Numbered from the stretch's first letter, positions 37,987 through 59,050 are shown. The stretch is DNA of 64,000 bases from an uncultured virus (IMG/VR IMGVR_UViG_3300038825_001787) (IMGVR_UViG_3300038825_001787), one strand, 5' to 3'. Translations and numbers: made by a program. The notes: a model not told the origin generated them from the letters alone.

Positions 37987-38165
37987 TATCACAGATACCG
38001 TAAAGAAGCGGGCGGAATATAATATTCTGCCCGCAACTGACGGTTACTAGACACAATTTAAAAGAAGGCTCTCAGCGTTTGCGATTAACCCCGTAAATGC
38101 TGAGGGCAATTTTTTTTTGTCCCGTGTTAATAGTCCCTCATAAGAGGGAGGAGAATGAAAAAAAT

Positions 38166-38830: not shown

Positions 38831-39073
38831 AACGCACATCCAATTGGGGATACTAACCGTATCGCCATTACTAGCAAGAGTATAACACAAACTTTTACAT
38901 CATGTAAAAGTAACTTGATCAGTTGCCCGAAGGATAAATTTGTCGGGAATTTGGAGCAGAATAAGCAGGGCCTCACATCCCTACTTTGGCTGGCTATCCT
39001 CGACTTGATGTAAAGGCATACACTTGCGCCAACGGTGCGGCATAAGCAATTGCAAAACTTATGTCGCCCAACA

Positions 39074-39510
39074 GATAGATTTATGGAATAAGAAGATCGT
39101 GATAATATACTGAGGTAAATTAGCCTATGACGTTACGTTACCATTTGGTACATTTCGCGAATTTTAAACACAACTAAACACACTATGTAGTGATTAAGTG
39201 AAACATGCGAACCAAGTTCGCACTTATGGGGCTCCATAAGTTAAAACACTAATCACTACAATAAACACGCAAGAAGACAGACTAATCGACGTCCAAAGGA
39301 CATCAAACGTCAAATTCCCTCATACACCAAATGGTAACGTGATGGGCATATGACAAGATTGGTTCTGGTCTGTATCTGGGAATGCCTTCTACTAAGAGGG
39401 TGCCCAACTGTACAAGTAAACCGATAATCAAAATCGGAGTAACTTGAATGAAGCACCGTACCGGTGGGCCCTACAGTGGTCCAAGATATGGGGCTCCATA
39501 CGTACTAATG
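39074..39510 (+). ncRNA. K-turn-headed structured RNA (3' end uncertain)
   Basis: CTGA-GGT/GCC-TAT-GACG at 39110-39132; 15-bp long-range stem ACGTTACCATTTGGT/ACCAAATGGTAACGT. Confidence 0.5.
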
Positions 39511-41039
39511 TGAATGGAAAATAGTTTATGTAAAAAGAAAACCACTAAACCACGCAGTCACTGTGTGGAATTCCCGGGTGACCCGGTCGTTACAGTGGAC
39601 CGCTCGTGTACTACTATAGTAGACAAGCAAGTACAGAAAGTAGTTTAAAGAATGCATATGTGGAAATTTGCTAAAATTTCCCACATTATGTGGAAGACAA
39701 TCACCAAACGATGACTCTGGGACCTCGCTCCTGGAGGAGCCCGCATGCATGCAATGCTACGGGACCAGTCACCTGCACTATCATCCGGATACAAATGTTG
39801 TAATCGGAAAAGAAGCAGGAGATGCAACAAATTCTGGATACTATAACATAGTAATCGGAGATTTTGTATGGGTGGAAAAAGGCGTATGAGACGTGGTATT
39901 GTATACCGCGGACGAGGTAATAACCTCATCAGGACTTCTCAAGACGACCTAAAATTGTTTTCAGTAAGAATACGCAATGCTACTTCTACAGGAAGAGCGC
40001 CGCCCGAATGGCCCCAAGGACATGCTTAGCGCACGCCTGCCAGGGAAATTCTACAACTTACAATCTAGAAAATACTTTATGACAAATGTAATACAAATAA
40101 CCAAGCCGAAGACATCGACTGTAGTCGACCTTAGGTGGTATACCCGTGGAACAATTTACGGGTCGTTACAACAAAAAAATACATGAAAAATTTACTCGCT
40201 AGCGATAGCGAATACAAACATAAAAAGTGGCTATAAACCTTTTTAGGAAGGATTATGGACAACTTACACACGCGTACGTACATGATGCGCATTGGACAGT
40301 TAACTGAACAAACAACCCAGAGTACCTTTGGGTTAAACGAACGTTCAGGGTCCATCGCAAAAGAAAGAAGAAAGGTTATCAAACAACGAGAAATCCTCAT
40401 GGATGCCTTGTTGGGCTACACCATGAATTCATACAGTAATACAGTAACACTCAACTTTAAGACACGTGAAGAATTGTTTTGACTAATTATGGGACTGCAG
40501 TTTGCAAAACCCAAGTGCTCCATCGCTCACCTGAGTGATGGAAAATAGTTTAAAATCAAAGAAATTGTAAAAGATTTACATTGCCAGACAAAACTCCTCC
40601 CCCTACCGGGGTTAGGACACCAAAAGGTGTTTGGCCAAAAGGGAGAATACGGCGAGGGCACATTCCGTGCCGACCAATTCATCATCTTAGGAACCTAAGG
40701 TGTGTGGCGAGACCAAGATATCTAGAACCAAAGAAAATTCTTCTCAGGTTCTACGACTAGTGGCTCCTCATACCAAACAAAGTACTCTGCGGAGACGCAG
40801 GAACTAGGAACTAATTTGTAGACAAACTCTAAGAAAATTAGGTCACCTATTTACTGATGTAGATATGGTGGTCCTATTTAGAAACCCTAAGTTGTAAACA
40901 AAACAGAACTACCTAAATGTAATCACTGTTTAACAATATCACTGGCGATTGGTAATATGCAACCCGACTATATGTGGGGAAGAATGCTACCAAAATTCCC
41001 GCTTCCCATAAACCTATCACCAGAAGGAGTATTAATAAT

Positions 41040-42776
41040 ATGACAGACAAAAATGAACTGAATAATGAATTAAGAATAGCAATAGGTGCGCACATGCCGT
41101 GTCTGGCGATACAATCGCCAGAGACAGATGAGATCATATTTGATGTGGTCCAGCATGCTTGCGTAACGCATGACGTAACACCATTAGTAATGGTGTGGCG
41201 AGTATCAGCAGGCTTTGAAGAGTACGCTGGATACATACAAAACGATGACGAAGAAGAAGTAGTAATAACATCAAAAGTCAGCCCTCTTGTTAGAGGGATT
41301 GACATACGAAAAACCGGAAGAGTTGAGGCTAGTGAAGAAGACTTCCCTGGCTGTCAAGTTCCGTTTGCTGTTAACTACATGACAAATTATGACCCAACAA
41401 CAGAAGGAAGGATGGCTATTTTCATCCTCCGTGATTGGCATAATTACATCGATAGTAATGCAGAATTTATTGACCAACAATTAAATTTGTTTGAAAATAT
41501 ACTACATGGGGATGACAAAACCATCCTCATGCTCAACCCTTCAAGATGGAATGGCGATACAGTTCCTAAGGAACTAAGTGAATTTATACGCGTAGTTGAT
41601 TTTCCTTTGCCGGATAAAGAAACACGAATCGATATAATTGAAACTAATCGCACAAGAATGGCTACAGACGGTGCTTTAGCACCGGAAGCCAACGCCCTTT
41701 TCAGAAATTATTCTGATGATGAATTGGAAACCTTCGCAGACGCCTGCGCGGGTTTGACAAGACAAGCCATTGAAGACGTACTCACTATGTGTGTAGTCGA
41801 AAAAGGCAAATGGGAAGTTGGTTTCATCCTCGATGAAAAAATAAAGAACGTAGAGCGAGCGGGTTTCACCCTGATTCGCCCTACTTCTGGCTTCGAAAAT
41901 ATTGGTGGTTTAACTCCTTTGAAAGAATGGGTTACACTAATATCGAAGCGGTTTACAAATGCTGCGAGAGAGTACGGTTTTATCCGTAACGTTCGCGGAC
42001 TTTTGATGGCTGGTGTCCCTGGTTGTGGTAAAACTGCAATCGCTAAGGCAACAGCCAAAGAAATGAATATGAATTTACTGATGGTAGATGCAACAGACCT
42101 GAAAGGTTCACTTGTTGGTGAATCCGAAGCGAAGGTGCATAGACTATTGGAAATTGCCAAGGCAGCCGCTCCGCTAATCGTCTTCGTTGACGAGGCAGAA
42201 AAGTTACTTGGTAAGGCAGAAGGAATCCACGACGGAGGCGCACACGATGCTGTTCTCGGTCAATTCCTAACGTTCATGCAGGAAGATGACTCAGGAGTGT
42301 TTTTCGTTTTCACAGCGAATAACATGAATAAGTTTGCTCCAGAATTGATAGACCGATTTGAAGGAAGATTCTTTATTGATCTTCCAGAACCCGAAGAAAG
42401 AGAAGAGATTATTAAAATCCACCTGGGATTAAGAAGGCAAGAATTACCTGAGTCTGATACAAAGGACTTAGTTAAACTTACTGCTAACTTTTCAGGTCGA
42501 AACATCGAAGATGGTATTGAAGAAGCCATGACTCGTTCTTTTGACGAAGACCGACCACTTGAAATGAAAGACTTGACTTCTGTATTTGACGTGCTGGTTC
42601 CTACCAGCAAGACAAAGAAAGAAGAAATAGAAATCATGCGATCCTTTGTTGACAATGGATCTATGAGACGAGCAAATGATGTGCAAAAAGCAGCACCCGC
42701 TAGAAGCCGAAAGGGTTCAAGCAGGATCACCACTGTTAGCACACCTGATAGTATAGAGCAAACTGAGTTTGCTTAA
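41040..42776 (+). CDS. AAA+ ATPase, Ycf46/SpoVK-like
   Basis: IGGL..LKEW, Walker A GVPGCGKT, Walker B FVDEAEK, TANN, degenerate N-terminal AAA domain. Confidence 0.9.
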   Translation: MTDKNELNNELRIAIGAHMPCLAIQSPETDEIIFDVVQHACVTHDVTPLVMVWRVSAGFEEYAGYIQNDDEEEVVITSKVSPLVRGIDIRKTGRVEASEEDFPGCQVPFAVNYMTNYDPTTEGRMAIFILRDWHNYIDSNAEFIDQQLNLFENILHGDDKTILMLNPSRWNGDTVPKELSEFIRVVDFPLPDKETRIDIIETNRTRMATDGALAPEANALFRNYSDDELETFADACAGLTRQAIEDVLTMCVVEKGKWEVGFILDEKIKNVERAGFTLIRPTSGFENIGGLTPLKEWVTLISKRFTNAAREYGFIRNVRGLLMAGVPGCGKTAIAKATAKEMNMNLLMVDATDLKGSLVGESEAKVHRLLEIAKAAAPLIVFVDEAEKLLGKAEGIHDGGAHDAVLGQFLTFMQEDDSGVFFVFTANNMNKFAPELIDRFEGRFFIDLPEPEEREEIIKIHLGLRRQELPESDTKDLVKLTANFSGRNIEDGIEEAMTRSFDEDRPLEMKDLTSVFDVLVPTSKTKKEEIEIMRSFVDNGSMRRANDVQKAAPARSRKGSSRITTVSTPDSIEQTEFA

Positions 42777-42818
42777 AAACAAACAAGCCTTTAACTGACC
42801 ACTTAGTGGTCATACTAG

Positions 42819-43502
42819 ATGACAAAGAAAGGATTTGTAAAAGAAGGACTGGAAGCAAAAGTGAACGCAAAGGAGTTATTTACTCCGGCAGACTATTTTT
42901 CCGTTGTCCTATATTATAAAATGATGAAAGAAAAGTTAGAATTGCCAAAAATTCTGTCCAAACGGACAGACTTTAGTGATGCGCCACTAGAACTTGCAGA
43001 AGGTCTAGATGACATCATTCACGCAATGATGAATGAATTTGAAAAGAATAATATTGACCCAAGAGAAGAACAAGTAAATCTTGGAGAATTGAATATCTTT
43101 TCTTTTATTATGCACGACCCTTTGCTGAAACAAGCAATAGGTAATGTAGCAAAGCAGGTTTTTATGCGAGACGAAAGAATCGACCAAGAAACTGCAATTA
43201 AAAAAGCACAGGATGCTCTACCAGATTTGATGGGAGACTTCCAAGAAATTTTTTTACCAAACATGATTTCACGCACTTTACCGCAGATATTCCGCAGAAT
43301 GGATATGCATGGTATTGAGCAGAAGGATGCACTGGAAATGCTAGAGCCACAAGTAGCCACTATTGGCTACGAGGCCATAAGAAAGCACGGGTTTAAAATT
43401 GGTGAAGAACTATCAATAGGACTTTACTTTAAACAACCAGTCATCGACACGACTATGAGTGATGAATCGCGTAAAAGCGATGCAGACTCTATGTTTGGTT
43501 AA
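42819..43502 (+). CDS. hypothetical protein
   Basis: Starts at hairpin+TACTAG-ATG. Confidence 0.7.
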   Translation: MTKKGFVKEGLEAKVNAKELFTPADYFSVVLYYKMMKEKLELPKILSKRTDFSDAPLELAEGLDDIIHAMMNEFEKNNIDPREEQVNLGELNIFSFIMHDPLLKQAIGNVAKQVFMRDERIDQETAIKKAQDALPDLMGDFQEIFLPNMISRTLPQIFRRMDMHGIEQKDALEMLEPQVATIGYEAIRKHGFKIGEELSIGLYFKQPVIDTTMSDESRKSDADSMFG

Positions 43503-43532
43503 TTTGGCCTTTGGCCATACTAGAGGAATAAA

Positions 43533-44264
43533 ATGACAATTGAATTAACAATTAAAATTACCCCAGATGAATTACAAGAACTTGAAAAGAATAAGAGCGC
43601 ACTAATCGCTTTTATTTTGAAGCAAAAAAACACTACCACAATAGTGCAAGGTAATGAAGCAGGCAAGGTGATTGCAGATATGCAAAAGACAAAGGACAAA
43701 CAGGCTGTGGAAGAAGCCAGAAGAACTGCCCTTGAAACAAACCACCAAGTACTCGCTGAAATTATCAGAAACGCCAGAGATTTGAAGACAGTTAAACAGC
43801 AAGCAAAATCCAAGACCTCTCTTAAGAGGCACGAAATTGCTCAGTTGTCTACTGATAAGAAATGGCTTAGAAAACACAAGTTACCTTCTTTACCGGAGGA
43901 TGATGATGTGTTTAGAATGAATGCTAAAGACTTCGAGACTGAAGTAATTAATCATTTCAAGCAACGCTTAACAGGTAATGCTGAAAATGGAGAATATCTC
44001 GAAATTTACTTTTATGAACAGAATGCCAGTGGCGTAGAGTACCGTAATTGGTGCGCTAATATCTTGAAGGATATTGCTAATGGCAAGAAATATGAAGTAT
44101 CTGAAGACAGATTATTTAACACAATAAATGGTATCTTGATGACTTATGTACAGAACCTTCAAAGTACTTTACAGGAAGAAAATGCTTGGACCATTATTGT
44201 AGACTCCGAATACGCTATGATCGTTATTGCACCAGATGGTGCAAAACACATCTTAGCAAACTAA
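43533..44264 (+). CDS. hypothetical protein
   Basis: After hairpin+TACTAG and GAGGA RBS. Confidence 0.7.
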   Translation: MTIELTIKITPDELQELEKNKSALIAFILKQKNTTTIVQGNEAGKVIADMQKTKDKQAVEEARRTALETNHQVLAEIIRNARDLKTVKQQAKSKTSLKRHEIAQLSTDKKWLRKHKLPSLPEDDDVFRMNAKDFETEVINHFKQRLTGNAENGEYLEIYFYEQNASGVEYRNWCANILKDIANGKKYEVSEDRLFNTINGILMTYVQNLQSTLQEENAWTIIVDSEYAMIVIAPDGAKHILAN

Positions 44265-44281
44265 GCCCACGGGCTTTACTA

Positions 44282-44737
44282 GAAAGAAAGAAAGAACTGA
44301 GGCAGTTAATGCCAATGACGTTTTTTTCCAAGAGTTTACAACTAAACAGACAAAGTACAGAACACATTTCACAATTACGTGCTGAGAAACGTATTTTCAG
44401 AACTTCTAAAAATACAATTAGAAGTGCGGCAATATGTAAAATTGTGTCCTCGGTCTTTTCCGCTTAGTTGTAACTCTGGAAAAAATTCTGCTTATGCACG
44501 GCAAAAACGTCTAGCAACTTTTCACGAGGAACGTATTAATAAAATAACCGAGATCTGGCAATAGTAAAGCCAAGACTCTACAGCGCAGACGCGCAAAGAC
44601 AACAAAGTTGGGTTATTTTTGATTAATACGAATCTCGAGCAAAACTTGTCTAGGAAATTTTTGTCCCTCCCCGATAAGTCGGGATGTGCTATTTGGAATA
44701 AATCCAAAACCGCAGAATAATATAGTTTCTTTCACTA
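44282..44737 (+). ncRNA. K-turn-headed RNA with terminal stem
   Basis: K-turn at 44297-44320; ends GAAAGAAA/TTTCTTTC-ACTA. Confidence 0.6.
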
Positions 44738-44750
44738 GGAGAGACAGAAA

Positions 44751-45608
44751 ATGAATAAAAAAATATTTTCAATCGCACCCAGTTTCAACTGCCAACTCAG
44801 TTGCGAAGGGTGCTACTTAACAACAGATGTTACAAAAGAGATGAGAAATGCAACCAAGTCAGAAGCATACTATTTACGAGCAATTGAAACTGCTGCGGAA
44901 AATGGTTACACTGACTTTGCAATAACATGGAACCCATTTCCTGGGTCCTTTGAGATGACTAAAAAATATATACTGTACGCCAAAAGTTTGGGTTTCAACA
45001 CAAGTGTAACAACTGTGATGAGCACACTCGATGAAGTGGACGATGAAGATTTTTACAACAACTTAGATGTTCTAACTATCTCAGTAGACGATATGCGATT
45101 TGCAAGCATACGGAACTTTATTACCGAAAATCCGAACCGATTTGATTTGACAAAGAATCCTGCTCTTGTAATTAATTACAATTTACTTTGGACCCCAACG
45201 GTCTTTGAATGGCTTTATGAAAATGAAGACGAATTTGGAGAAATGTTGGAGTCTATTAATTACCCGAACACTGTACAACACCTAATTTACAAACCACTCT
45301 CGATTTACGAGCAGCAAGGTTTTAACTTTTGGGAAAACTACCAACGAGTATTCACAGAATATCCGTGGGTAAACATTACCGGAGACGGTAAAAAATACAT
45401 TGGAGATATTGCTCTAAACAACCTACTTGGAATTAACAACTGCCCTGGAGAAGATTTCCAGATGGTAGACGTTGACCCAATGGGCCAAGTTAGACGATGT
45501 CCAGAAAACCCCATCTCATATGATGGTGGTGATATTTACAAATTGTCCCAACTGCTTGCAGGTGGTACTAATTGTAAATCAGAAAAATGTAATTGTATCA
45601 CTGGTTGA
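44751..45608 (+). CDS. radical SAM protein
   Basis: CQLSCEGC (CxxxCxxC) and C-terminal SPASM/twitch-like cysteines. Confidence 0.8.
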   Translation: MNKKIFSIAPSFNCQLSCEGCYLTTDVTKEMRNATKSEAYYLRAIETAAENGYTDFAITWNPFPGSFEMTKKYILYAKSLGFNTSVTTVMSTLDEVDDEDFYNNLDVLTISVDDMRFASIRNFITENPNRFDLTKNPALVINYNLLWTPTVFEWLYENEDEFGEMLESINYPNTVQHLIYKPLSIYEQQGFNFWENYQRVFTEYPWVNITGDGKKYIGDIALNNLLGINNCPGEDFQMVDVDPMGQVRRCPENPISYDGGDIYKLSQLLAGGTNCKSEKCNCITG

Positions 45609-45616
45609 TACTACTA

Positions 45617-45738
45617 GGAGGAGTGAGCATAATTTTACAAGTTATGGTTCTTGTTTTATTGTCTCTTTTTTTAAATAGAGGTAGCAGTTGCTTGTGATGA
45701 GCAAACTACCTTTTTCATCAATGCTCACTTCTCCAACA
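45617..45738 (+). ncRNA. small RNA closed by a 14-bp terminal stem
   Basis: GGAGGAGTGAGCAT/ATGCTCACTTCTCC-AACA. Confidence 0.55.
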
Positions 45739-45768
45739 GATGAGTAAGAGACAAAAAACCAACAACTA

Positions 45769-46058
45769 GGAAGAGTAAAATCTGAGATCTAAAATCAATG
45801 ACGAAACGCCTCAACACCGGCGACTATAGATACGTGCCGATTTCTTATCCCGCCGATAAGAACCGTCGGAGTAGAGTATGCACTCTACACCTGCACCGTG
45901 AAAATAAATTTCACGTCAATAGTCGGAAACCCGGATTATGAGACGTCTCAGAACAACCAGACCACAAACGTGTCTGCCATAACCTGCCCTTTGGGGTCAG
46001 ACTATGGTGCCTGACATGCGTCAGTCAGTTGCCCTGAGAATATAGAAACTTCCAACTA
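45769..46058 (+). ncRNA. K-turn-headed RNA with terminal stem
   Basis: K-turn at 45782-45803; GGAAG/CTTCC-AACTA. Confidence 0.55.
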
Positions 46059-46346
46059 GAATGAGTAAAACACACTGAAGCCGAGAGGCTAATGACGTAT
46101 GGCGTCAGAGCCTGAACGGGGATAAACCCCTTGTCAGTCTACACTGGCAAAGCCTCAACAATACGTGAAGATACATTACATCCGCAAAACGATGTTTTTC
46201 GGTCTTCATCGACTGTTGAACGTTCTGACACCAGTGATAATATTACACTATCAAGATAAACTTGACGTGGTTCAAAGGCTCAATGAACTATCGTCACTCG
46301 AACTCGTGACTCATAATATTATCACATTAGGACTTACCATTCACTA
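46059..46346 (+). ncRNA. K-turn-headed RNA with terminal stem
   Basis: CTGA-AGCC-GAGA-GGCT-AAT-GACG at 46075-46097; GAATG/CATTC-ACTA. Confidence 0.6.
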
Positions 46347-46902
46347 GAAGAGTTAGATTAAACTACTGAGGCCGCAAGGCCGATGACGTAGTGTTAACCA
46401 TCGTTACAAAAGTGCACAATTCATGTAAGAGTAAAACCTTAGACCTGGTCTTATTCTTCGTGACACTTATGTAACGATAGTTAACACTGCACACCTGAAG
46501 GCGGCAAACAACAACACCCTTTGATAACGGGTAAACAAAAATTGTTTCTGCGATTTTGGCCTAAAAACCAACATTAACATTTGTGTAAGTTTTTTTGAGA
46601 AAGATTGAGGTTAGAAACAGCACTCTGAAGCGTGCAGTTCTAGCCTAGGGAAGACATCGTTACTTTAGACCCTGTTAAGGTCACCCCTAGTATTTCTAGA
46701 GGTGCAGTCCTCATACTTTGCATCCGCAAAGCACAAGGTGGTCGCGGAACATTCCGCTCAACACTATAAAAGGGATAATCCTCAACACGGTACTAAATTA
46801 AGCGATTCTTACCTAAAAGACAAGACACAGACCAATGGCGAATGCTAATGCATATCACGGATTGGACTTTCTCAAAAAAACAATATAGTTTACTCTTCAC
46901 CA
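46347..46902 (+). ncRNA. K-turn-headed RNA with terminal stem
   Basis: ACTACTGA-GGCC-GCAA-GGCC-GAT-GACGTAGT; GAAGAGT/ACTCTTC-ACCA. Confidence 0.65.
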
Positions 46903-46914
46903 GAAGGAGATAAT

Positions 46915-47190
46915 ATGTCAGATAATACATCAATATTTGTACGATACACCAGAAAACGCCATGAGTTCGAAGTTGCTCACCTAGAAATGGGTGAACAATT
47001 TGACGAACCATGTTGGATTGACTGTGCGACATTTCGCACAGAAAGCACTGCACTAAAATCTGCAGTAAACCTTTATGTTAATTTATTACACGATGACCGA
47101 GCACCAGAATATGGTATAACGCCATTATACGATGCCGACAACCTAATACCAAAGGAACAAAAAACTTTGAAATCATGGGTGGAGGCTTAA
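46915..47190 (+). CDS. hypothetical protein
   Basis: AGGAG RBS after the junction. Confidence 0.6.
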   Translation: MSDNTSIFVRYTRKRHEFEVAHLEMGEQFDEPCWIDCATFRTESTALKSAVNLYVNLLHDDRAPEYGITPLYDADNLIPKEQKTLKSWVEA

Positions 47191-47364
47191 GTATGGAAGA
47201 AAAACTTGATCAACTAATTAACTTACAAAAAGCAAACAATACTTTGCTTAACGAGATTAAAAAATCTATTGAAGTTTTCAGCGACTTCGTGCTAGAGGTC
47301 AAGCCTCAAGATGCACGAGAAGAAATTGAAAAACTTAAATAAATACAGTCTCTACTAGATTATT

Positions 47365-48933: not shown

Positions 48934-48955
48934 TTGAGTTGTTTTACTAGATAAC

Positions 48956-49552
48956 ATGGGAACAAGAAATTTAACCATAGTGAAGCACAATGAAGAGATA
49001 AAAGTAGCACAATACTGCCAATGGGACGGATATCCGGACTCAGCAGGTTTGTACATACTGAATTTCTTACAACGGCTCGTTAGACCAGACTTCATAGATA
49101 AATTAGAGCAATGCTCTTGGGCTACTACAGAAGACCTGGTAAAAATGGACGAAATTATTGGAAGTATTGAAGAAAATAATTTAACAATACACGCCGATAC
49201 TTGGCATGCAGTATTTCCTGCATTCCATAGAAACACTGGTTGTCGTATACTCGAATTAATTTGTCCACCATATGGTGGGCCTAAGAGAGTGCTATTACAA
49301 AATAGTTTTAAATTTGGAGGAGACAAAATCTTTTGCGAATGGGCATGGGTAATTGACCTGGACTCGAATCAACTAGAAGTGTATTCTTCTAGCGACGGTT
49401 CCAAGGGCATATTCGAAGACCTAGACGATCCGGTTAGATTAACCGTTTCATGGGACTTAGACAACCTACCAACCCCAGAAGACTTTATTACTTACTTCGA
49501 TAAACTAGCAGCCGAACAAGAACGACTTTGGCGTGCAAACAACAACCAATAA
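48956..49552 (+). CDS. conserved phage-type hypothetical protein
   Basis: MGTR.L....QY.QWDGYP and CEWAWVIDLD motifs. Confidence 0.7.
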   Translation: MGTRNLTIVKHNEEIKVAQYCQWDGYPDSAGLYILNFLQRLVRPDFIDKLEQCSWATTEDLVKMDEIIGSIEENNLTIHADTWHAVFPAFHRNTGCRILELICPPYGGPKRVLLQNSFKFGGDKIFCEWAWVIDLDSNQLEVYSSSDGSKGIFEDLDDPVRLTVSWDLDNLPTPEDFITYFDKLAAEQERLWRANNNQ

Positions 49553-49584
49553 AGAACACAAGTTCTTTTACTAGAGAGATTATT

Positions 49585-50367
49585 ATGTACGAGAATAACA
49601 ATAATGATGAAGAAAAACAGAAACTTGCCGACAAAATAGACAAAATTGTCAATGGCGAGGTAGATGCCAGGATTGGAGACTGGGACTTAACTGATGAGCG
49701 CATACTAAGCGTTTGTGACGGTTTAGTCAGCGAATATACTATTAACAAATTTATTTGCAGTCCAAGTAGCACTTTGGTTAAATCCAATAAGCACATATCC
49801 GAAGCATACTCTAATGTCGATTGTCGGTTTATTATGACCGCAGTCGCAGAAAAATACCTCAACGTAAACCCTGCTGATGTAGATTTGCGTTTGGAGGAGA
49901 TGAAGGAATTTTATGTAAAAAGAAACCTGAAAGAATACAAATTCAGGAATTGTCTGTCTAACGGTGCTATTGACAAGCACTGGGGAAACAGACCGCATGA
50001 ATTAGCAATCATGGAATGGAGATGGGACAATGGTTTGGCGTTCATGGACTACAAGGAACGGGTGATAACATACCTAACCAACGTAGCCGGACTGATAGCC
50101 GACGCAGAAGCAGAAAATGCAATTAAGAGAGTGTTTCATATACACTCCGCAACTGCTTTACTGCAGAAAGATTTCAAAACCCTATCAAACCATGACATAA
50201 TGAAGAGTGGGCTGATAAGTCGCTCTACAAAGAAAGCAATTGGTGATTTTGCCAATGGTAGGCTTTCTCTTGATAAAATTGCGAAAGACCAAATATATCG
50301 AAACTGGCTCGAATCACGAAGTGAAAAAGAGTTAGATGATGAATGGGAGAACAGAGATTCCAATTAA
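49585..50367 (+). CDS. hypothetical protein
   Basis: Start reassigned to the ATG after the junction. Confidence 0.7.
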   Translation: MYENNNNDEEKQKLADKIDKIVNGEVDARIGDWDLTDERILSVCDGLVSEYTINKFICSPSSTLVKSNKHISEAYSNVDCRFIMTAVAEKYLNVNPADVDLRLEEMKEFYVKRNLKEYKFRNCLSNGAIDKHWGNRPHELAIMEWRWDNGLAFMDYKERVITYLTNVAGLIADAEAENAIKRVFHIHSATALLQKDFKTLSNHDIMKSGLISRSTKKAIGDFANGRLSLDKIAKDQIYRNWLESRSEKELDDEWENRDSN

Positions 50368-50386
50368 TGGGCGAAAGCCTTACTAG

Positions 50387-50755
50387 ATGCTTAACAGAAA
50401 TACGCAATTAACAAATGCTGCGCGCATAGAACTGCATAAAGAAACACTTGATGAACTACACACCGATTTCAAAATTGGTAAAAAGTTCTTAGAAATAAAT
50501 CAATACTTTATCAGACGTAATGCACAAAATACCACAGACTCACCTGAGTCGGTAGCGCACTTTAAAAGAATGATAAAAGCAAAAACATCCAATGTTTTTG
50601 CAGATTCTTACGCGAGTTACTATGGTGGGTTAACACCTCACGTTGTAATGAGTTCAGTCGAGTTCTTGTCAGAACAAGACCCAGACTGGATGGAAGCAAA
50701 TTTCAGTGGCTTAATGATGTTTTATAGACATCAGCAAGCAGAAATGACGGAGTGA
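50387..50755 (+). CDS. hypothetical protein
   Basis: Hairpin+TACTAG-ATG. Confidence 0.65.
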   Translation: MLNRNTQLTNAARIELHKETLDELHTDFKIGKKFLEINQYFIRRNAQNTTDSPESVAHFKRMIKAKTSNVFADSYASYYGGLTPHVVMSSVEFLSEQDPDWMEANFSGLMMFYRHQQAEMTE

Positions 50756-50761
50756 TAAAAC

Positions 50762-51259
50762 ATGGCAGGAAAAAAGTCTAGACTCGACAGTTCCGTAAAT
50801 CCCTATTCTTCCTTAAAGAAGACAAAGGCTATGCGCACGCTTGACGAATTTATTGACATAAAAAATGTGAGTCCTGCTCAAATCAAAGGCTCAAACCCAC
50901 CTAATTTCAAATACATTGATAAAAATGGTGCAGTTTATACCTTTGAAGTAAGAAATACCGATAAATATTGTACTACTTATTTGTGTACAAGAAAATCTAG
51001 ACCCGATAGATTGGTCGAACAAATAGAAATTTTGAATTATTGGAAACAATTCAACCTAGAAGTTGAATGTATAAATTACACACACTTAATCCCAGTTAGA
51101 GCAAAATGGATGGACACTATTGTGGCCTCTAGATTGCCCAGAGGAATCACCGACCACTTAAGTAGGACAGAATATGTCGTGCCAAATTGGATACGCAGTA
51201 AACTGCTTATGATAACTGATTCTAACGGCTTAACACTGAATTTAGAGGAGGAGTTTTAA
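50762..51259 (+). CDS. hypothetical protein
   Basis: 165-aa ORF. Confidence 0.65.
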   Translation: MAGKKSRLDSSVNPYSSLKKTKAMRTLDEFIDIKNVSPAQIKGSNPPNFKYIDKNGAVYTFEVRNTDKYCTTYLCTRKSRPDRLVEQIEILNYWKQFNLEVECINYTHLIPVRAKWMDTIVASRLPRGITDHLSRTEYVVPNWIRSKLLMITDSNGLTLNLEEEF

Positions 51260-51282
51260 CTACCTCTTCTTACTAGAGTACC

Positions 51283-51498
51283 ATGAGTAAAAAAGGAATT
51301 TTTGAAAATATAACAGGCATGTGGAAAAGACGCAAGAGCATAGGAGGAGTTACAGAAACCCACTTCTATGGTCAAATTAGGGATACTATTACCCTGAGTC
51401 CAGGCGATAAAATCCATATGTATGAAACAAGGGCCAAAGATAGAAATGCGAAATCACCGCAGTTTCACTTAAAGGTTCTACGCAAAGATAATGAATGA
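51283..51498 (+). CDS. small beta-rich basic protein (possible ssDNA-binding)
   Basis: GMWK...FYGQI...KSPQFHL pattern. Confidence 0.45.
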   Translation: MSKKGIFENITGMWKRRKSIGGVTETHFYGQIRDTITLSPGDKIHMYETRAKDRNAKSPQFHLKVLRKDNE

Positions 51499-51520
51499 TC
51501 TATTTATTACTTGCTACTAG

Positions 51521-53134
51521 ATGAACGATAGAAGAACTATTGAAGAGATGCTCGCACGCGACGATTTTAGCACCAAAGAACTAAACAACAGTTTGTTTTT
51601 GACTAAAAGAAATGCTTGCGGCAAAATACCATATGCCGATGGAACAGAAGCATATGACATCATAGAGTTACTACACTTGGAAAAATTCAAAGACCGAGTC
51701 CACTACAATTTACCGGTGGAACGTTTCGATGAATTTATACCCATGTATGAATCTTTTTTCTTAACGAAAACAGAGTCACCATGGGTAAGAACACGACAAA
51801 GCCCAGAAATGGGGTATGAAGGCCGTTGCACCATTGGTGCCGGCATTTATTACTGTCGTACCAATTATGAAATACACGAAGATGAAAACTACAATTACAT
51901 CGTATCAACGTTTGACATATACACAAATAATTTATTTGACAATGCTGTTGAACTATACAATGGTGTAACACCTGCTTATTATTATAGGGGCACAGAGCCT
52001 CGACATATAGAAGCAGATACTGGACTATCCAGATTTTACGAGTTGTTAAAAACAGCGCCACAGAATACAGGCTCAACAGGCTCAACCCGCCAAGTAGTCA
52101 GGCACAACCTAACCAACTTGGAACGGTTGTGGCAATGGAAAAGTGAACATCGCCTACCAGAAGTGAGGCGACATGCTATGGATACAAGTCGAGATAACAT
52201 ATCAGTTACCAGAAATGGACTGACTGCTTGTGTTGCGATTCGTAAGGGGTTCAACCCCGCCCCAGGAGATCCAACGGCAGAAGCCGATAGGTCTTTGGGG
52301 GACTACGAGTTGACTAAAAGGTGGTTTGGCAAGTCGACGGCAACTGAAAGGTTGCTATCAATGCGAAAGCGTCCCGTGTATTTAAATGAAACAAGAATAG
52401 TAACTACTACTAATTCTTTAACTAAGAAAAAAAGTGACAAAATGTTTCAAGGCATTTTGGCACGGCAGCCCTCTGCTAATGGGATTGCCGACAACCCTTT
52501 TGCTTTTGCTCAGATCTTTACTACAAACAGTAATGAACAGAGCGGGCAAGAACTACTTCGTTTGTTGAAAAACAGACTAAGTCCAAAGAATTACCCTGAA
52601 ACCCAAAAAAAGGTCCTGTTGAAAGCCGGGGCCTTTGTAGGCAACAATCCGCCTGGTACGGATATAATAAGGATAGACCATGTTTTAACAAGCGCCATTT
52701 CTCTAGTAAGAAAAGGTGACTGTAATGAAAGAATTGGTGGACGCAACTTATATGACTTTTGTCGATTGAACGATGCAGAAGGAGTGTTTGAATTAACTCT
52801 CCCAAACAATGCAACACTACGACTAGACAAGAAAGTGGCTACACTAGACAATGGTATATACAAAGTTTGTGTCACAGAAGACGTGACCGATATTATACAA
52901 TATCTATCTACAATAAGGACTGCATTCGGCAGCGTAACTGTCGAAATAAAAAAGGGAAGACTAAACCTAGAAACAGGCTCAGTGAACGAAGTCCGTCGAA
53001 AAAGACGCGCTAGAATCATGAGTCCTTCTACTAACACAACTCCTACTTCGAGAAGAACAAGGTATGGAAGATTTAGACTAGGAAGTGCTTTTGGACTTTT
53101 AGGAAAAGAAAATAAAACGGATGAAAATGAATAA
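51521..53134 (+). CDS. hypothetical protein
   Basis: 537 aa, TACTAG-ATG. Confidence 0.75.
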   Translation: MNDRRTIEEMLARDDFSTKELNNSLFLTKRNACGKIPYADGTEAYDIIELLHLEKFKDRVHYNLPVERFDEFIPMYESFFLTKTESPWVRTRQSPEMGYEGRCTIGAGIYYCRTNYEIHEDENYNYIVSTFDIYTNNLFDNAVELYNGVTPAYYYRGTEPRHIEADTGLSRFYELLKTAPQNTGSTGSTRQVVRHNLTNLERLWQWKSEHRLPEVRRHAMDTSRDNISVTRNGLTACVAIRKGFNPAPGDPTAEADRSLGDYELTKRWFGKSTATERLLSMRKRPVYLNETRIVTTTNSLTKKKSDKMFQGILARQPSANGIADNPFAFAQIFTTNSNEQSGQELLRLLKNRLSPKNYPETQKKVLLKAGAFVGNNPPGTDIIRIDHVLTSAISLVRKGDCNERIGGRNLYDFCRLNDAEGVFELTLPNNATLRLDKKVATLDNGIYKVCVTEDVTDIIQYLSTIRTAFGSVTVEIKKGRLNLETGSVNEVRRKRRARIMSPSTNTTPTSRRTRYGRFRLGSAFGLLGKENKTDENE

Positions 53135-53146
53135 TCCGTTTACTAG

Positions 53147-53665
53147 ATGAAATATATTTGTAAAATATGTGATTTGGAATTCACGACAGAGGCAGCAGAA
53201 AAACTGCATAACTCTGTTTTTCACAAAAAGAAAGCCAAAGTAAAGACACCGAAAAAACCACCAAAGAAGGATAAACTCCTGGCAACTGATGCTAGGAAAG
53301 GATACCTTTCTCGTGGCGGTGAAAATACCAAAGTATTCTTGCCCGATGGAAAGTCTACTAAATATAAAGACTACATCAAAGGAATGCGAGACGGCTTTCC
53401 TGACTTCAAAGTCGGCGATAAAATCGCTGCGAAAGAAGTTAGAAATTTGTTTAAGCACGATATATATAATACAAAAGATATCAAAGGTGCTAAACTGGAA
53501 GTTAAAAGAATTGTCAAAAATAAGAATGGTATTAGAAGATACTATTTGGAGAACAGCAAAGTGCGATTGACGTGGTCCGAAGGGGTCGCTTTCAAGAGTC
53601 ATGCTGAAAGAAAAATGCGTGACAAGCATATTATACTTCCAATTAATTTGTTTCACAAAAAGTGA
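53147..53665 (+). CDS. C2H2 Zn-finger basic protein
   Basis: CKIC...F.......H....H. Confidence 0.65.
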   Translation: MKYICKICDLEFTTEAAEKLHNSVFHKKKAKVKTPKKPPKKDKLLATDARKGYLSRGGENTKVFLPDGKSTKYKDYIKGMRDGFPDFKVGDKIAAKEVRNLFKHDIYNTKDIKGAKLEVKRIVKNKNGIRRYYLENSKVRLTWSEGVAFKSHAERKMRDKHIILPINLFHKK

Positions 53666-53772
53666 AACTACTAGATGAGTTCGGAAGATAACCCCATGCG
53701 GGCCTTCCCATTAAGTAAGAACAATGATATCAGGAATTTTGAGTGTGGTTAGAATATAACCACATTCATCAG

Positions 53773-53967
53773 ATGAGTAAAATAGAAGATGACGTATGTC
53801 AACAAATACAAGACCGTGCCAAAGTGGGGCTAAACAAATATGGAACCACTATGGAGCGTACTGACCTTTCTACAATAGACTGGTTGGAACACGCCAAACA
53901 AGAAGCAATGGATCTTGTCATATACTTAGAGCGTATCATACAAGATATGCGTGAGAAGGAAGAATGA
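53773..53967 (+). CDS. small all-alpha phage protein (MazG/dNTP-pyrophosphohydrolase-like)
   Basis: R..VG..KYGTT..R.DL...WL.H..QE.MD...YL. Confidence 0.55.
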   Translation: MSKIEDDVCQQIQDRAKVGLNKYGTTMERTDLSTIDWLEHAKQEAMDLVIYLERIIQDMREKEE

Positions 53968-53982
53968 ATCTTCCATTACTAG

Positions 53983-54264
53983 ATGGAAATCAAAATTAAA
54001 ATGGAACCCGAAGACATACCAAAAATATTGAAGGGGATTGGAAACGTCGAACAACCGGCAGAGTCTGTTGTTGAGAAACGTGCCAAAAGGGCCGACATTG
54101 GACAAAACAGAGTCCCCTGGTCGAAAAGAGAGAAGGCTTGGCTGAAAAAGCAGGCAAGACCAACCATTGATAACGGTCATCATCGGCAAGAATTGAAAGA
54201 AATGTTTGGCAATATCCGAACAGCGAAGTCAATAGATGCTTGTTGGAGAAGACTTACCAATTGA
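53983..54264 (+). CDS. Myb/HTH-like small protein
   Basis: WSKREKAWL...FG..RT.KSI...W.RL. Confidence 0.45.
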   Translation: MEIKIKMEPEDIPKILKGIGNVEQPAESVVEKRAKRADIGQNRVPWSKREKAWLKKQARPTIDNGHHRQELKEMFGNIRTAKSIDACWRRLTN

Positions 54265-54317
54265 TTGAGCATAACATAGTAAGATTAATTACTAACTATG
54301 TTTCCTCAATTTACTAG

Positions 54318-54518
54318 ATGACACTGATGCCAAAGCAAAGTGAGAACCTGGGACTAGAAATCTCAGAGCCTATATACAGGCTGGCAACAAGCATATACGA
54401 AAAGCACAATTCCAAGGTCTTAGCAGGCAGTGGAAAATGGATGCCCACAAACGTAGCGGTTGACTTGGCAAAAAAAATGCTAAGTGAAACGAATGCTAGT
54501 CGGTCTAATACTAGATGA
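54318..54518 (+). CDS. hypothetical protein
   Basis: Hairpin+TACTAG-ATG. Confidence 0.5.
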   Translation: MTLMPKQSENLGLEISEPIYRLATSIYEKHNSKVLAGSGKWMPTNVAVDLAKKMLSETNASRSNTR

Positions 54519-55747
54519 GTAATATAAACGAAAATCAAGGATACGCAGTTGAAGGAAGATTGAAAGAAACAGCCAAAGGGTATTTAGCCCTCTGGTCAAT
54601 TAATGCAGGTAGGATGAGATATTCCGACCTTGTTACTGTTGCTAAGCGCAATGGTTTAACACAGGGTCAGATACCGAAACTACGAACCGCAAAGAATGCT
54701 TTTGCAGTTGCAAAGGATACTATACTTAACTCCGCATTACCAACACTCTTAGAATTAGATGGTTGGGATGGAGCGGTCAAACAAAGTTTAGATGTTAAAC
54801 ATCTAAAAAGAGGAAATGAATACCAAGTCTCGGTTAGACGAGAAGGTAGAATGCATGGGAAGTTGCACAAGGAAAGTTCTCCAGTCTTTAGACTGGAATT
54901 CTCTCCTCCAGATGCCTTTGACCATGTTGCATGGGTACAAAACTACATGCGCTCTTTTTGGGATGCTGAATACATCAAAGAAATTGAAGCAGGTACTAAA
55001 CAAAGACCTGTACCTAGTCAAACTAGGGTTTGTATACGTATAGAAGGCTATTGGGATGACAGCGATATTGACGTCGAGTTGATGTTGAGAGTCAGAGACC
55101 GAATAAGCCAAGCATTTGAAGATACTATTGTTAGTATTGACGAAACGCTTTTGCGACAACACATTAAAGAGACATTGAAATCTTTAAACGGTATTAGTTT
55201 CCTTGCAGGCAAGGGGGCTACATATATTCCCATTACAGACGAGGACAGAGATTCAAAATCTGCGTCTTTGGAGTCTATGGCTAATATTATCACCTCTTTT
55301 TCTAGAGGATACCAAACAACCGCAAACGATGAAAACTACTATGACGAGAATGGCAAACCCATCAATCGTTATGGAACATCAAGTAATTTTAGATATCTAG
55401 GATACCTAGATAGCGAAAGAGAGATGCAGTACATAAGAGAAGATTTGGGTTCCAGTATTTCGAGAGAAATAGCGGAGTTCCAAGCAGAAGTCGTTAAGAC
55501 TGCTGCCTCTTTTGATACAACTAAAGTCGAACTTTTCGAGAAGCAACTTACCAAATTGCAGAGAAAGAAAACTAATATTACTAAAAGAATCGGCAATATG
55601 CGCACAACATTGGGCGGAGAGATTCCTATTCGTAGGAGACTCCATTCTGATGTTCAGCAAAGATTTGGTAGCCGAATCTCAAACATAACTCAGACCCACA
55701 ATGCAGTTAGTACTACATTGATGAAGTTAACTGAGTTTGACAATTGA
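54515..55747 (+). CDS. hypothetical protein
   Basis: 410 aa, TACTAG-ATG. Confidence 0.75.
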   Translation: MSNINENQGYAVEGRLKETAKGYLALWSINAGRMRYSDLVTVAKRNGLTQGQIPKLRTAKNAFAVAKDTILNSALPTLLELDGWDGAVKQSLDVKHLKRGNEYQVSVRREGRMHGKLHKESSPVFRLEFSPPDAFDHVAWVQNYMRSFWDAEYIKEIEAGTKQRPVPSQTRVCIRIEGYWDDSDIDVELMLRVRDRISQAFEDTIVSIDETLLRQHIKETLKSLNGISFLAGKGATYIPITDEDRDSKSASLESMANIITSFSRGYQTTANDENYYDENGKPINRYGTSSNFRYLGYLDSEREMQYIREDLGSSISREIAEFQAEVVKTAASFDTTKVELFEKQLTKLQRKKTNITKRIGNMRTTLGGEIPIRRRLHSDVQQRFGSRISNITQTHNAVSTTLMKLTEFDN

Positions 55748-55765
55748 GGCTAATGCCTCTTACTA

Positions 55766-56481
55766 GAAAGTAAATACAACTGATGCCCTTCGGGGCAAAT
55801 GACGTATCGCCGAAAATTCCGGTAGAGCACGCTCTACAGGAACGGCTCATCCTCCGGAACTGCTTCAGGCTGCTGCGCAGACTACTGCGTATCTGAAGCC
55901 TTTACCCTAACATCCCTATCACCTTGCGGCTCCGCTGCGGTGAAACGGAATGTAAACGGGCACGCCTAAACTACAGTTTCCTCGAGCGAGTAAACTGGTT
56001 TAACGGCTAATCCTACGGAATAACAATCAGGATTTAGTCCTGATAGTATGAGCCTATTTACCGCCTCTACCCTCATTGGGGTAACCCAATTAACCTTCTA
56101 AAGAAGGGAGGGCGAGAGGCTTCGGCTCCTCGGAACTACTACGGCACGAACCAAGATTGAGTTAATCAGTCAAGAGAAATATAAGTACCCGCGTACTGAC
56201 ATTTCACATGACTTACTCAATTTTCATGACTTACCCTATGTAGAAACATAGATTTGAACAACTTGAGGCGGCTCTGCGCTGCCCTAAAGGGACATCAAAT
56301 CTCTGCGTCTACCCCTAGTAAGTCACGAAAGTTCATACCTTGAGCCACGGTGGAATCCAGAAACAAGTCTTCTGGATTCTGCCCTGCAACTGTATGCTCT
56401 GCGGAACCCCGCATACAACGTTGCGGCTTGGCTCAACCGGTTCATCGCCAAGTTCCTCGGAAAATAGTTTTACTTTCACTA
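55766..56481 (+). ncRNA. large K-turn-headed RNA with terminal stem
   Basis: CTGA-TGCCC-TTCG-GGGCA-AAT-GACG at 55780-55804; GAAAGTAAA/TTTACTTTC-ACTA; many internal hairpins. Confidence 0.65.
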
Positions 56482-56510
56482 GAGCCTCGAAAGAGGAAGA
56501 GTTGATTGAC

Positions 56511-56903
56511 ATGATTGAAGAAAGAAACAACATAGTTGACCAAGCAATTACTGATGTAGCACCCGCTACACCAATTGCTGAGCAACCCAAGAAAACAAAA
56601 ATGGCGCCCATAACGAATGAAATATTTATTCGTATGTGGAACCAATCTGAATATGTCAATGATGCAGCAGAGGCGATGGGTATGAACCCCGCTTCTGCAA
56701 GAGCAAGGGCCGCAAAACTGAGGGCTATATTTGCGAAAGCAGGTGTAGAAATACAGTTGAAGAAACACCCTAAAGCACCAAGAAAGCAAAAGAAGTCGTT
56801 GGTCAATGACCTAGACGAACTTGAAAGACTTGCTGCGATTGCTAAAGCATCATTACCATCAGAGCCAGCAACACAAAGTGCACCATCAGAGCAATCTGAA
56901 TGA
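56511..56903 (+). CDS. HTH-like protein
   Basis: VNDAAEAMGMNPASARARAAKLR; start after the junction and RBS. Confidence 0.55.
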   Translation: MIEERNNIVDQAITDVAPATPIAEQPKKTKMAPITNEIFIRMWNQSEYVNDAAEAMGMNPASARARAAKLRAIFAKAGVEIQLKKHPKAPRKQKKSLVNDLDELERLAAIAKASLPSEPATQSAPSEQSE

Positions 56904-56921
56904 AACACTTGTGTTCTACTA

Positions 56922-57476
56922 GAGAGAACTAAAACACCGATGCCGAACAAGCATGTGACGTAAATTAGTAAATTAGAGATTACACATAGCAAGGAAGTCA
57001 AACTGATTTTCTGCTAAATCTAAATCTGCATGGTGATCCAAGCAAGTAATCACGAATGGAATAAATCCACTCGCTGATTTGTATAGGGCAGTTGCCCTAC
57101 TCAAATCTTACCTGCCCAGGGTCACCAGCACAATTAGAATAAAGAATTCACATTCGTGAATTAAACTACCACCACATTAGAACGGTAGTCTGCCTTAGAA
57201 TTAATTTTTTAACATCCGCAACTGGAAACGTTCCGCGTGTCTTCACATTCACCTTTACAAAGTAAAGGCCGCACAATACTGTGCCACCAACAGTGAGGTA
57301 AAATCCTCACAACATTGGTTGAATGTTCCAAACACAGCGTCCGAGTTCCAATGCGGAACACCAAAAATCAATAAAAGTTAAACACTAAAACTAGGCAGCA
57401 TTAAACTGCCAAAGTAAAGCGGCTTATATAAGCCCAATAGTAAAACTTGAAACACTAAAAACTAGAACTCTCACTA
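56922..57476 (+). ncRNA. K-turn-variant-headed RNA with terminal stem
   Basis: CCGA-TGC/GCA-TGT-GACG at 56937-56960; GAGAG/CTCTC-ACTA. Confidence 0.5.
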
Positions 57477-57808
57477 GATAGACCACCATATTTTATATTC
57501 ATCACCATGAAAAAATAATGGTTTATATGACAATCGGGAAAGACCGGTACCAGATGAACAAAACTAAACCACTACAACAACTCAATGCTGATTTCCTAAA
57601 AAAAGATTGGACGTATGAAAAATGACGCTTTTAATTTATGGACGCATGGATTAAAAATGAAAGTATACTTGTTGGAAAAGGCGACAGGGGTAAAACCCGG
57701 CTCTGTGGTCACAAGTTTTGCGTCGGACACCATGAAAGAATGGAACACTATGCTGTGGGCCCGAGCGGTGACAGTCATATTGTTAAAAGGGGTGAGATTC
57801 CCCACTAG

Positions 57809-59041: not shown

Positions 59042-59050
59042 GGTTACTAG

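Follow-up and report, generated by a model that had tools for sequence, protein, structure and literature searches.

Seven hairpin-led, open reading frame-poor units in a marine virus-like element as candidate large non-coding RNAs with a shared kink-turn-type handle

Introduction

What is encoded in stretches of a virus-like genome that are rich in hairpins, poor in open reading frames (ORFs) and opened each time by the same kind of small hairpin? The question is raised by the 64,000-nt stretch IMGVR_UViG_3300038825_001787, which was analysed as a whole (the window) and on which all coordinates are counted. From the sequence alone, the original prediction had proposed a family of at least seven long non-coding units that begin with a kink-turn (k-turn) hairpin and act as sponges for the k-turn binding protein L7Ae, as scaffolds, as guides or as anti-defence decoys. 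The reading that we prefer, and to which we give about an even chance, is that the seven units (U1 to U7) are free-standing non-coding RNAs, in which the shared 5' k-turn hairpin would be a generic handle, architectural or for the docking of a protein, and the bodies would do the specific work.

The k-turn motif

The motif was found at each of the seven predicted sites, 39110, 44297, 45782, 46075, 46366, 55780 and 56937, all of them on the plus strand and in ORF-poor DNA. A covariance model was built from twenty copies, the seven of the window and thirteen from the relatives described below, and both strands of the window were searched with filters off. It gave seven matches at 35.7-44.0 bits, on the plus strand only, the next best reaching 12.5 bits (E 1.1). 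As the seven sites belong to the training set of the model, the informative part of this result is that there is no further match: the family had been put at seven or more, and in the window it has exactly seven members. The plain pattern CTGA-N8-20-ATGACG occurs eight times against 1.05 expected, a number reached in none of 100 shuffles. Six of the eight are units, the seventh unit having the variant CCGA...GTGACG, and the remaining two (15970 and 62402) are stemless and lie inside coding DNA. Searched on both strands, with its seven model matches all on the plus strand, the motif is not equally frequent in coding or minus-strand DNA.

In the alignment of the twenty copies 92.5% of the 120 pair cells hold standard pairs, compared to 72.3 +/- 2.4% in shuffles, none of 500 being as good, and slid registers of the same alignment are at most 39.8% paired. 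All four stem pairs vary on either side. At 5n-5b fourteen copies have A-U, three have U-A and three have no pair (17 of 20 paired), the 4b-4n pair is G-C and position 3b is C in all twenty, and 3n is U in seventeen and C in three. Equally invariant are the core C..GA + U-GACG, the length of the bulge (exactly 3 nt) and the GA both after the bulge and before the stem, the hairpin being otherwise unconserved. Beyond 5b-5n the non-canonical (NC) helix has no consistent pairing, and neighbouring helices may compete with it. The loops include GAGA, GCAA and UUCG; stems and loops are as had been described, apart from weaker stems in U1 (GGU/GCC, one pair being U.G) and in U7 (UGC/GCA).

Read as RNA, the motif is composed of a C-U-G-A strand, the hairpin as canonical (C) helix, an N-A-U bulge, G-A, and a C opposite U or C at 3b.3n. 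A C helix, a 3-nt bulge and tandem G.A pairs make up the standard k-turn in the definitions given in PMC5061560 and PMC4382518. Judged by its letters, the shared motif looks like a standard k-turn, and the predicted signature, with a covarying C stem, a 3-nt bulge and G-A on both strands, is present in 20 of 20 copies. In the Kt-7 background, as found in PMC4382518 (McPhee, Huang, Lilley), C at 3b with a 3n other than G is associated with folding in Mg2+ alone and L7Ae still binds; the same source describes box C/D and U4 k-turns as requiring protein to fold. Since 3b is an invariant C, the turn of the units is predicted to kink by itself and would still be bound by L7Ae. The kink may on this view serve the architecture of the RNA and not the trapping of a protein.

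The seven units and their ends

Each unit is bounded by two junctions, whose signal is described in the next section, and is listed here with its hairpin, the score of the model, the terminal helix, the z-score of the fold and the predicted pairs with compensatory changes among aligned relatives.

39070..40900, plus strand: U1, with a body of about 1.8-1.9 kb, no ORF above 75 aa and an uncertain 3' end; junction variant AACAGATAGA at 39070-39079, k-turn hairpin 39110-39132, 37.4 bits; internal signals of GAAAATAGTTTA type at 39514, 40065 and 40538.
44278..44739, plus strand: U2, 462 nt; ACTAGA at 44278, hairpin 44297-44320, next junction ACTAGG at 44734, 39.2 bits; terminal helix GAAAGAAA/UUUCUUUC; z -8.5; 23 of 137 pairs compensatory (6 sequences).
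45765..46060, plus strand: U3, 296 nt; ACTAGG at 45765, hairpin 45782-45803, 35.7 bits; terminal helix GGAAG/CUUCC; z -5.5; 6 of 87 pairs compensatory (7 sequences).
46055..46348, plus strand: U4, 294 nt; junction at 46055, hairpin 46075-46097 with loop GAGA, 41.2 bits; terminal helix GAAUG-GUAA/UUAC-CAUUC; z -6.0; 5 of 87 pairs compensatory (6 sequences).
46343..46904, plus strand: U5, 562 nt; junction at 46343, hairpin 46366-46388 with loop GCAA, 3' variant ACCAGA at 46899, 44.0 bits; terminal helix of 13 bp; z -11.0; 22 of 96 pairs compensatory (8 sequences).
55762..56483, plus strand: U6, 722 nt; junction at 55762, hairpin 55780-55804 with loop UUCG, next junction at 56478, 35.8 bits; terminal helix GAAAGUAAA/UUUACUUUC; z -11.2.
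56918..57478, plus strand: U7, 561 nt; junction at 56918, hairpin 56937-56960 (CCGA...UGU-GACG), 3' junction at 57473, 36.9 bits; terminal helix GAGA/UCUC + CUAG:CUAG; z -11.7; 20 of 147 pairs compensatory (4 sequences).

The junction precedes the CUGA by 17-23 nt in six units and by 35 nt in U1, whose junction is the variant ACAGATAGA, so that the expected short spacing is measured as 17-35 nt. The units close on themselves: the letters after the 5' junction pair with those before the 3' junction, the sequence of this end helix being specific to each unit. Common to them are the leader, ACUAG followed by a AAGAGUAAAA-like A-rich stretch, and the trailer, composed of AUAG, the helix strand and C-ACUAG. 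U2, U3 and U4 share a predicted layout of terminal helix, k-turn hairpin and two domains closed by long-range helices, the first of which is predicted to start 1-6 letters past GACG.

The z-scores of the units range from -5.5 to -11.7, those of size-matched coding controls from -1.6 to -7.1. The coding controls 41500-41960, 47800-48360, 52000-52720 and 54800-55360 reach -5 to -7 against dinucleotide shuffles, which is unusual for mRNA. The bodies had been described as unrelated by eye, and the same is found at profile level: nhmmer profiles of U3, U4, U5 and U7 match only themselves and the 5' module of other units (E 0.0035 or above), with no shared body.

The junction signal

The units share their type of boundary with the protein genes around them. 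The junction signal, AC(T/C)AG(A/G) and once ATAGA, is found 5' of most protein genes, of one tRNA gene and of the RNA units in the block from 34 to 64 kb.

34394..63755, plus strand: junction grammar, the 3' strand of a helix, 0-3 pyrimidines and AC(T/C)AG(A/G).

On the plus strand, beyond about 34 kb and up to the end of the window, a hairpin, two or three pyrimidines (YTT) and ACTAG(A/G) stand before almost all genes. The sequence ACTAGATG occurs 24 times against 2.45 expected, none of 100 shuffles reaching 24, and 21 of the 24 occurrences are on the plus strand within 34394-63755. Many protein genes have their ATG directly against the junction, which would give leaderless mRNAs or mRNAs with a leader of 5 nt, and the tRNA-Lys(CUU) starts 12 nt past such a junction. 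The variants are ACTAGG, ACCAGA and, at U1 and in 31.5-34.5 kb, (A)ATAGA. The signal is absent from the minus-strand gene blocks at 6-13 kb and at 24-31 kb, the second of which holds the gene for RNA polymerase, and this suggests two transcription classes in this element. The junction itself may mark a start of transcription, where the polymerase of the element would begin anew behind a terminator, or a processing site. Distinct large RNA units take up more than 10% of the gene block.

A second type of junction, (A)ATAGAT, precedes several small genes at 31500-34500. The same part of the window has two more ORF-poor, hairpin-rich stretches, at about 31780-32340 and 33240-33780, with UUCG-capped stems and no k-turn motif, and two copies, at 31534 and 31860, of an element that measures about 55 nt and contains a TATA-like run (ACCGGTATCGGTT..GACGTTATAATAATGTAAGGAG).

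The shared ends lend themselves to a different explanation, possible though on balance unlikely, in which the 5' leader and the k-turn-like hairpin act in cis as a signal for the expression of transcripts that are not translated. The element's own RNA polymerase or a factor would read it, with no involvement of host L7Ae; such a signal could for example suppress premature termination, direct the processing of ends or block 5'-3' decay. This explanation would account for the fact that the entire 5' module (ACUAG, AAGAGUAAAA-type leader and hairpin) and also the 3' module (AUAG, helix strand, C-ACUAG) are common to the units and not the k-turn alone, and that the module is found exclusively on ORF-less units; the junction grammar is limited to one gene block, and the element has archaeal-type RNA polymerase subunits of its own. 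It does not account for the conserved letters of the hairpin, which are exactly those of a k-turn and no others, and among the proteins of the window none was recognised as a candidate RNA-binding factor.

The position of the units 5' of genes could also be taken to mean that they are very long structured leaders, that is riboregulators of the genes downstream. The genes after U1, U2, U5 and U6 do have a purine-rich GGAG-type leader and an ATG which is not on the junction, and a small gene on the junction variant ACCAGATG follows U7. However, U3 and U4 precede another RNA unit and no gene, every unit ends in a terminal helix of its own plus a complete junction, genes behind protein genes may have short leaders too, and in L007, a relative without U6, the downstream gene keeps the same leader after the sole junction. 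We therefore consider it improbable that the units are leaders.

Relatives and cassette behaviour

Twelve metagenome contigs (numbered with an L) were pulled by alignment of the 522-aa protein encoded directly after the RNA cluster. They are syntenic with the window, their similarity to it being mosaic, and ten of the twelve carry syntenic copies of units. The model was run on both strands of eleven of them (97,163 bases), and L013 was examined by pattern and BLAST only. The eleven loci yielded 27 motif copies at 29.5-46.2 bits, all on the plus strand and at the places of U1 to U7, the next best match having 13.4 bits. In these copies the CUGA / NAU-GA-CG core is unchanged and the stem covaries. 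The description of an ORF-poor, non-coding, structured and strand-specific family extends in this way to the relatives.

Units come and go as a whole. U4 is missing in L012 and L013; L011 has U6, L002 has a copy of it that is truncated where the contig ends, and L007 and L013 have none. Where U4 or U6 is missing, one copy of the junction is left. Whole hairpins are gained or lost in U3 and U4, U3 having a variable hairpin which is present or replaced. In L012 (2035-2057 and 3592-3614), and likewise in L013, U2 and U3 have one and the same hairpin, which departs from both orthologous hairpins of the window, and the body of U3 is kept. The hairpin is thus exchangeable, with constraint on the k-turn core only, and the identity looks like gene conversion between 5' modules. 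U1 behaves in its own way: its first 75 nt or so are 85-87% identical, and the body is almost wholly different among the window, L007/L009 and L013, hardly alignable among the three and poor in ORFs in each of the four genomes with U1. Within this body (39144-40893 in the window, 1461-3429 in L007, 1979-3709 in L013) one island of 62 nt, 40222-40284, is kept, the flanks being 75-95% identical.

Protein genes of the relatives show the same gain and loss at junctions in contigs from RNA libraries (joints 48951-49594 and 57462-57803), and the gain and loss of gene cassettes at junctions seems to be general. At 48951-49594, 53672-53771 and 57462-57803 an entire protein-coding unit, together with one junction, is skipped in RNA-library contigs of relatives.

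Such behaviour invites comparison with non-autonomous mobile DNA cassettes, with the paired ends as terminal inverted repeats and ACTAG as target-site duplication. The ends are indeed inverted repeats which include the palindrome CTAG, and the presence or absence of U4 and U6 leaves exactly one junction copy. Against this, no two units have a common body, and the near-identical copies with conserved terminal inverted repeats that mark miniature inverted-repeat transposable elements were not found, the profiles of U3, U4, U5 and U7 finding no other body. The ends differ between units (GAAAGAAA, GGAAG, AAGAGU, GAGAG) and covary rather than being conserved, protein genes are likewise gained and lost at junctions, and nearly every gene of the block has ACTAG upstream. 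Mobile DNA is for these reasons a very unlikely account of the units.

Coding capacity

The longest ORFs of the units differ among relatives and none is conserved, so that no conserved small protein was seen. The ATG within AUGACG opens frames of 2, 2, 7, 8, 16, 47 and 52 codons. Among these the 47-codon frame of U3 is the sole recurring ORF; it is intact in five of seven sequences and frameshifted in L012 and L013, and its amino-acid changes track the compensation of the stem. All three stop codons occur in every frame of the units except frame 0 of U3, which has TGA only (three). An alternative genetic code was considered and rejected: no reassignment of a single stop opens the units save for that frame of U3, and TGA ends neighbouring genes. 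No ORF of any unit has a match in Pfam. That the units are protein genes in decay or with an unusual code, or genes for small proteins, as the frames opened by AUGACG and the mostly intact frame of U3 might suggest, is extremely improbable given the erratic frame lengths, the frameshifts in U3, the three kinds of stop in all frames but one, the paired substitutions in the stems and the lack of Pfam matches.

Known RNA families and sequence databases

In a search of the whole window with Rfam 15 (4227 models) a tRNA was the only match above the gathering threshold. With E up to 5, the regions 36000-47400 and 53600-57900 gave six matches of 8-24.6 bits, all far under their thresholds, the best match of a small nucleolar RNA (snoRNA) model to the units having 20 bits against a threshold of 45 (E 5). 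The family had been predicted to be undescribed, and Rfam holds no match to it.

Archaeal box C/D small RNAs have a terminal pair of boxes C (RUGAUGA) and D (CUGA), an internal C'/D' pair, a length of about 50-70 nt and guides of 10-12 nt to rRNA or tRNA; the units have one motif each, lengths of 294-722 nt or about 1.8 kb, and no match to a C/D family above chance. Archaeal H/ACA small RNAs have a 3' ACA and a pseudouridylation pocket below a k-turn. The 3' ends of the units read ...C-AC(U/C)AG after a helix and have no H/ACA match in Rfam, the pocket not having been searched for. Complementarity of the units to the rest of the window is at chance level, with stretches of at most 19 nt with mismatches or 15 nt exact (E about 0.03 or above).

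These results bear on the roles that had originally been proposed, as sponges of L7Ae, as modification guides or as decoys against host defence. The k-turn signature and the likely archaeal host speak for them, and the hypervariable body of U1 (about 1.8-1.9 kb) would suit an arms race. A single k-turn per RNA of 0.3-1.9 kb makes a poor sponge, though; for guides, features of box C/D or H/ACA RNAs, snoRNA matches above chance and antisense stretches above chance within the window were all lacking, and the idea of decoys found no support. We give these roles little credence, about as little as the view of the units as leaders.

Searches of phage, IMG/VR and GTDB collections did not turn up the family. 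The 38800-41000 region had no BLASTN match in a phage collection, in which protein searches found only distant relatives of the AAA ATPase and of the family B DNA polymerase (PolB). In IMG/VR two flanking proteins had no relatives, the PolB alignment gave one contig (52% identity) without the junction grammar, and the U4/U5-type motif had no match; a loose pattern of junction plus motif gave at least 119 matches, and as 0 of 80 loci examined fitted the covariance model these were taken as chance. In GTDB genomes nothing was found by protein alignment, and two motif matches, in metagenome-assembled genomes (MAGs) of 61% and 70% G+C without similarity to the window, were likewise taken as chance.

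Gene content and setting of the element

The element encodes a 1560-aa RNA polymerase large subunit (24122-28804, minus strand) with Rpb1 domains 1-5 in one ORF, domains which in archaea are normally divided over two subunits; of the structures solved so far, archaeal Rpo1N (E 2.6e-104) and eukaryotic RPC1 match it best. Adjoining this gene is a 79-aa ORF with an Rpb5_C domain (29997-30236, minus strand), about the size of archaeal RpoH. The window also encodes PolB, a PriS-type primase, a serine recombinase, a Cdc48/PAN-like AAA ATPase, two RNase H genes and a single tRNA, the tRNA-Lys(CUU) at 34406-34482. Most of the remaining ORFs have no family match, and no capsid genes were recognised in the window. 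Relatives of PolB at 50-96% identity are numerous in marine metagenomes, one member of their cluster carrying the label of a Euryarchaeota MAG, and near-identical DNA is present in marine samples, in 14 runs from at least eight studies and including one viral-fraction metagenome; the window itself may stem from any of these.

The 'group D' relatives of the magroviruses of Marine Group II Euryarchaeota have, in the account of PMC5434244 (Philosof et al. 2017), a DNA polymerase, a thermosome, a resolvase and an archaeal-type RNA polymerase A; they were seen in Tara Oceans scaffolds, lack morphogenetic genes and are described there as of undetermined nature, and a later paper (PMC11706807) terms them as lacking the major capsid protein. 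The passages on group D in these two papers make no mention of non-coding RNAs. Judged from the published description of the gene set, the window is alike in PolB, resolvase, archaeal-type RNA polymerase A and the lack of recognised capsid genes, and differs in having no thermosome gene. The element thus appears to be large, virus-like and associated with marine Euryarchaeota, and by gene set it fits the group D magrovirus-like elements. The Rpo1N-like subunit, the Rpb5_C ORF, the PriS primase, the PolB relative in a Euryarchaeota MAG and the group D gene set make an archaeal setting plausible, and with it L7Ae as a partner.

The 522-aa protein (47365-48933) used to collect the relatives has no family match. 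It is 41-51% identical in 20 of the 22 aligned relatives and 78% and 99% in the other two, and the DNA on its flanks shares 75-90% identity with the window in these loci. The protein may evolve fast because of a place at the surface or in contact with the host. Between U2 and U3 lies a gene for a 285-aa radical-SAM-like protein (44751-45608) with a weak match to the viperin family (E 7.8e-6), under the family cut-off.

Interpretation

The best reading of the sequence is that the units form a novel non-coding RNA family, whose common 5' k-turn handle can be exchanged and serves either the architecture of the RNA or the binding of a protein of L7Ae type. They would be separate genes, each delimited by the junction signal of the protein genes. 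Each RNA would be closed by pairing of its first 5-14 nt with its last, and about 5-10 nt inside this terminal helix would stand the hairpin-capped k-turn (5'-C(U/C)GA, a stem of 3-5 bp, the N-A-U bulge and GA-CG), its two G-A dinucleotides forming tandem sheared pairs and the hairpin being the C helix. The C-G pair and the next A-U pair would be a short NC helix which opens into a central junction, from where the domains of the body would radiate. The hairpin would in this way be an exchangeable handle that sets the geometry of the junction, and it would be a likely docking site for a host protein of the L7Ae family, giving a compact and stable ribonucleoprotein (RNP). The specific functions would be carried by the unrelated bodies of 0.25-1.8 kb.

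Several observations weigh against this. The NC helix is very short, and in U4 and U5 the letters after GACG are predicted to lie in a long helix which could compete with the C-G pair. By energy the reverse strand folds equally well or better in six of the seven units, and counts of GNRA and UUCG loops fail to separate the strands, so that the assignment to the plus strand rests on gene context and on the orientation of the motif. The covariation comes from four to eight closely related sequences per unit, with structures predicted on the same alignments. No ORF of the L7Ae family (PF01248) was found among the 100 ORFs of the window scanned against Pfam, and the NCBIfam annotation of 40 neighbouring proteins gave no RNA-binding family. 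Finally, contigs from four RNA-library runs (three studies) lie over the units and over the neighbouring genes alike, examples in X17 being 45166-46366 and 46490-47667. Such contigs cannot show the ends, the strand or the level of an RNA, and bins without cover carry no meaning; the equal cover of genes and a 61-kb contig in one oligo-dT library make carry-over of DNA possible, and the contigs were not counted as evidence of transcription. One loose end in the RNA libraries, at 46488, runs into the reverse complement of the U5 hairpin region, and we read it as an assembly path through a long inverted repeat.

A bolder version would have the units as ribozymes or RNP scaffolds of a capsid-less Marine Group II element, cut out of a transcript at the palindromic CUAG junctions and then held or circularised as an L7Ae-bound particle. 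The two junction copies would in that case pair beside the terminal helix, recalling the bulge-helix-bulge site of archaea. We regard this version as rather unlikely. If it were true, the units would be the first 'exceptional' large non-coding RNA family of an archaeal mobile element, together with a cassette system at the RNA level.

Large structured non-coding RNAs without known function are, to our knowledge, rare, and most known classes are from bacteria or phages; we know of none from archaeal viruses or plasmids. None was found either in the literature on marine archaeal viruses with an RNA polymerase, on virus-encoded k-turn RNAs or on magrovirus non-coding RNA. Here seven such candidates, clearly delimited, are present within 18 kb, and natural variants lack units or carry swapped hairpins. 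The shared k-turn handle is a direct entry for experiment, and the junction grammar makes the logic of transcription and processing in group D magrovirus-like elements testable.

Comparison with known systems

Archaeal L7Ae binds k-turns in RNase P RNA and in the 5' regions of transcripts, as reported in PMC4245976 and PMC5539422. The units have no similarity in Rfam to archaeal RNase P RNA down to E 5 and, in distinction to mRNAs with L7Ae-bound k-turns in their 5' untranslated regions, lack an ORF further down that the turn could regulate.

The internal C'/D' k-turn of box C/D RNAs is closer. It has the same order of CUGA, stem-loop and (R)UGA, with an identical CUGA, a purine at L2 and U at L3, and the tandem G.A and the 4b-4n C-G pair are alike, a comparison based on the general box consensus and on PMC5061560. 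The 3' box is RUGAUGA there, with U.U at 3b.3n, and AUGACG(U) with C.U in the units. Box C/D RNAs have about 60 nt and a terminal C/D pair, whereas the units have 290-1900 nt and one k-turn, with no terminal pair and no guide-target match found within the window.

Riboswitch k-turns such as that of SAM-I belong, like those of the units, to the 3b.3n class that folds in Mg2+ in the scheme of PMC4382518, and stand in the same way beside a multi-helix junction, with a short capped helix pointing back. In riboswitches 3n is typically G, in the units it is U or C, and no ligand-sensing domain was recognised in them. The swap of the hairpin between units with the body unchanged argues against a tertiary contact specific to each unit. 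By analogy the units are most like an isolated C'/D' or riboswitch-type architectural k-turn set on large ornate RNAs.

For the whole arrangement the nearest analogue would be OLE RNA of Firmicutes, of about 600 nt, whose biochemical function is unknown. According to PMC9723947 its k-turn is needed for recognition by OapC, so that there too a large ornate non-coding RNA has a k-turn, which docks a dedicated protein. OLE RNA is bacterial and a single family with sequence conserved throughout; the units are seven unrelated bodies without a match in Rfam that share only their ends.

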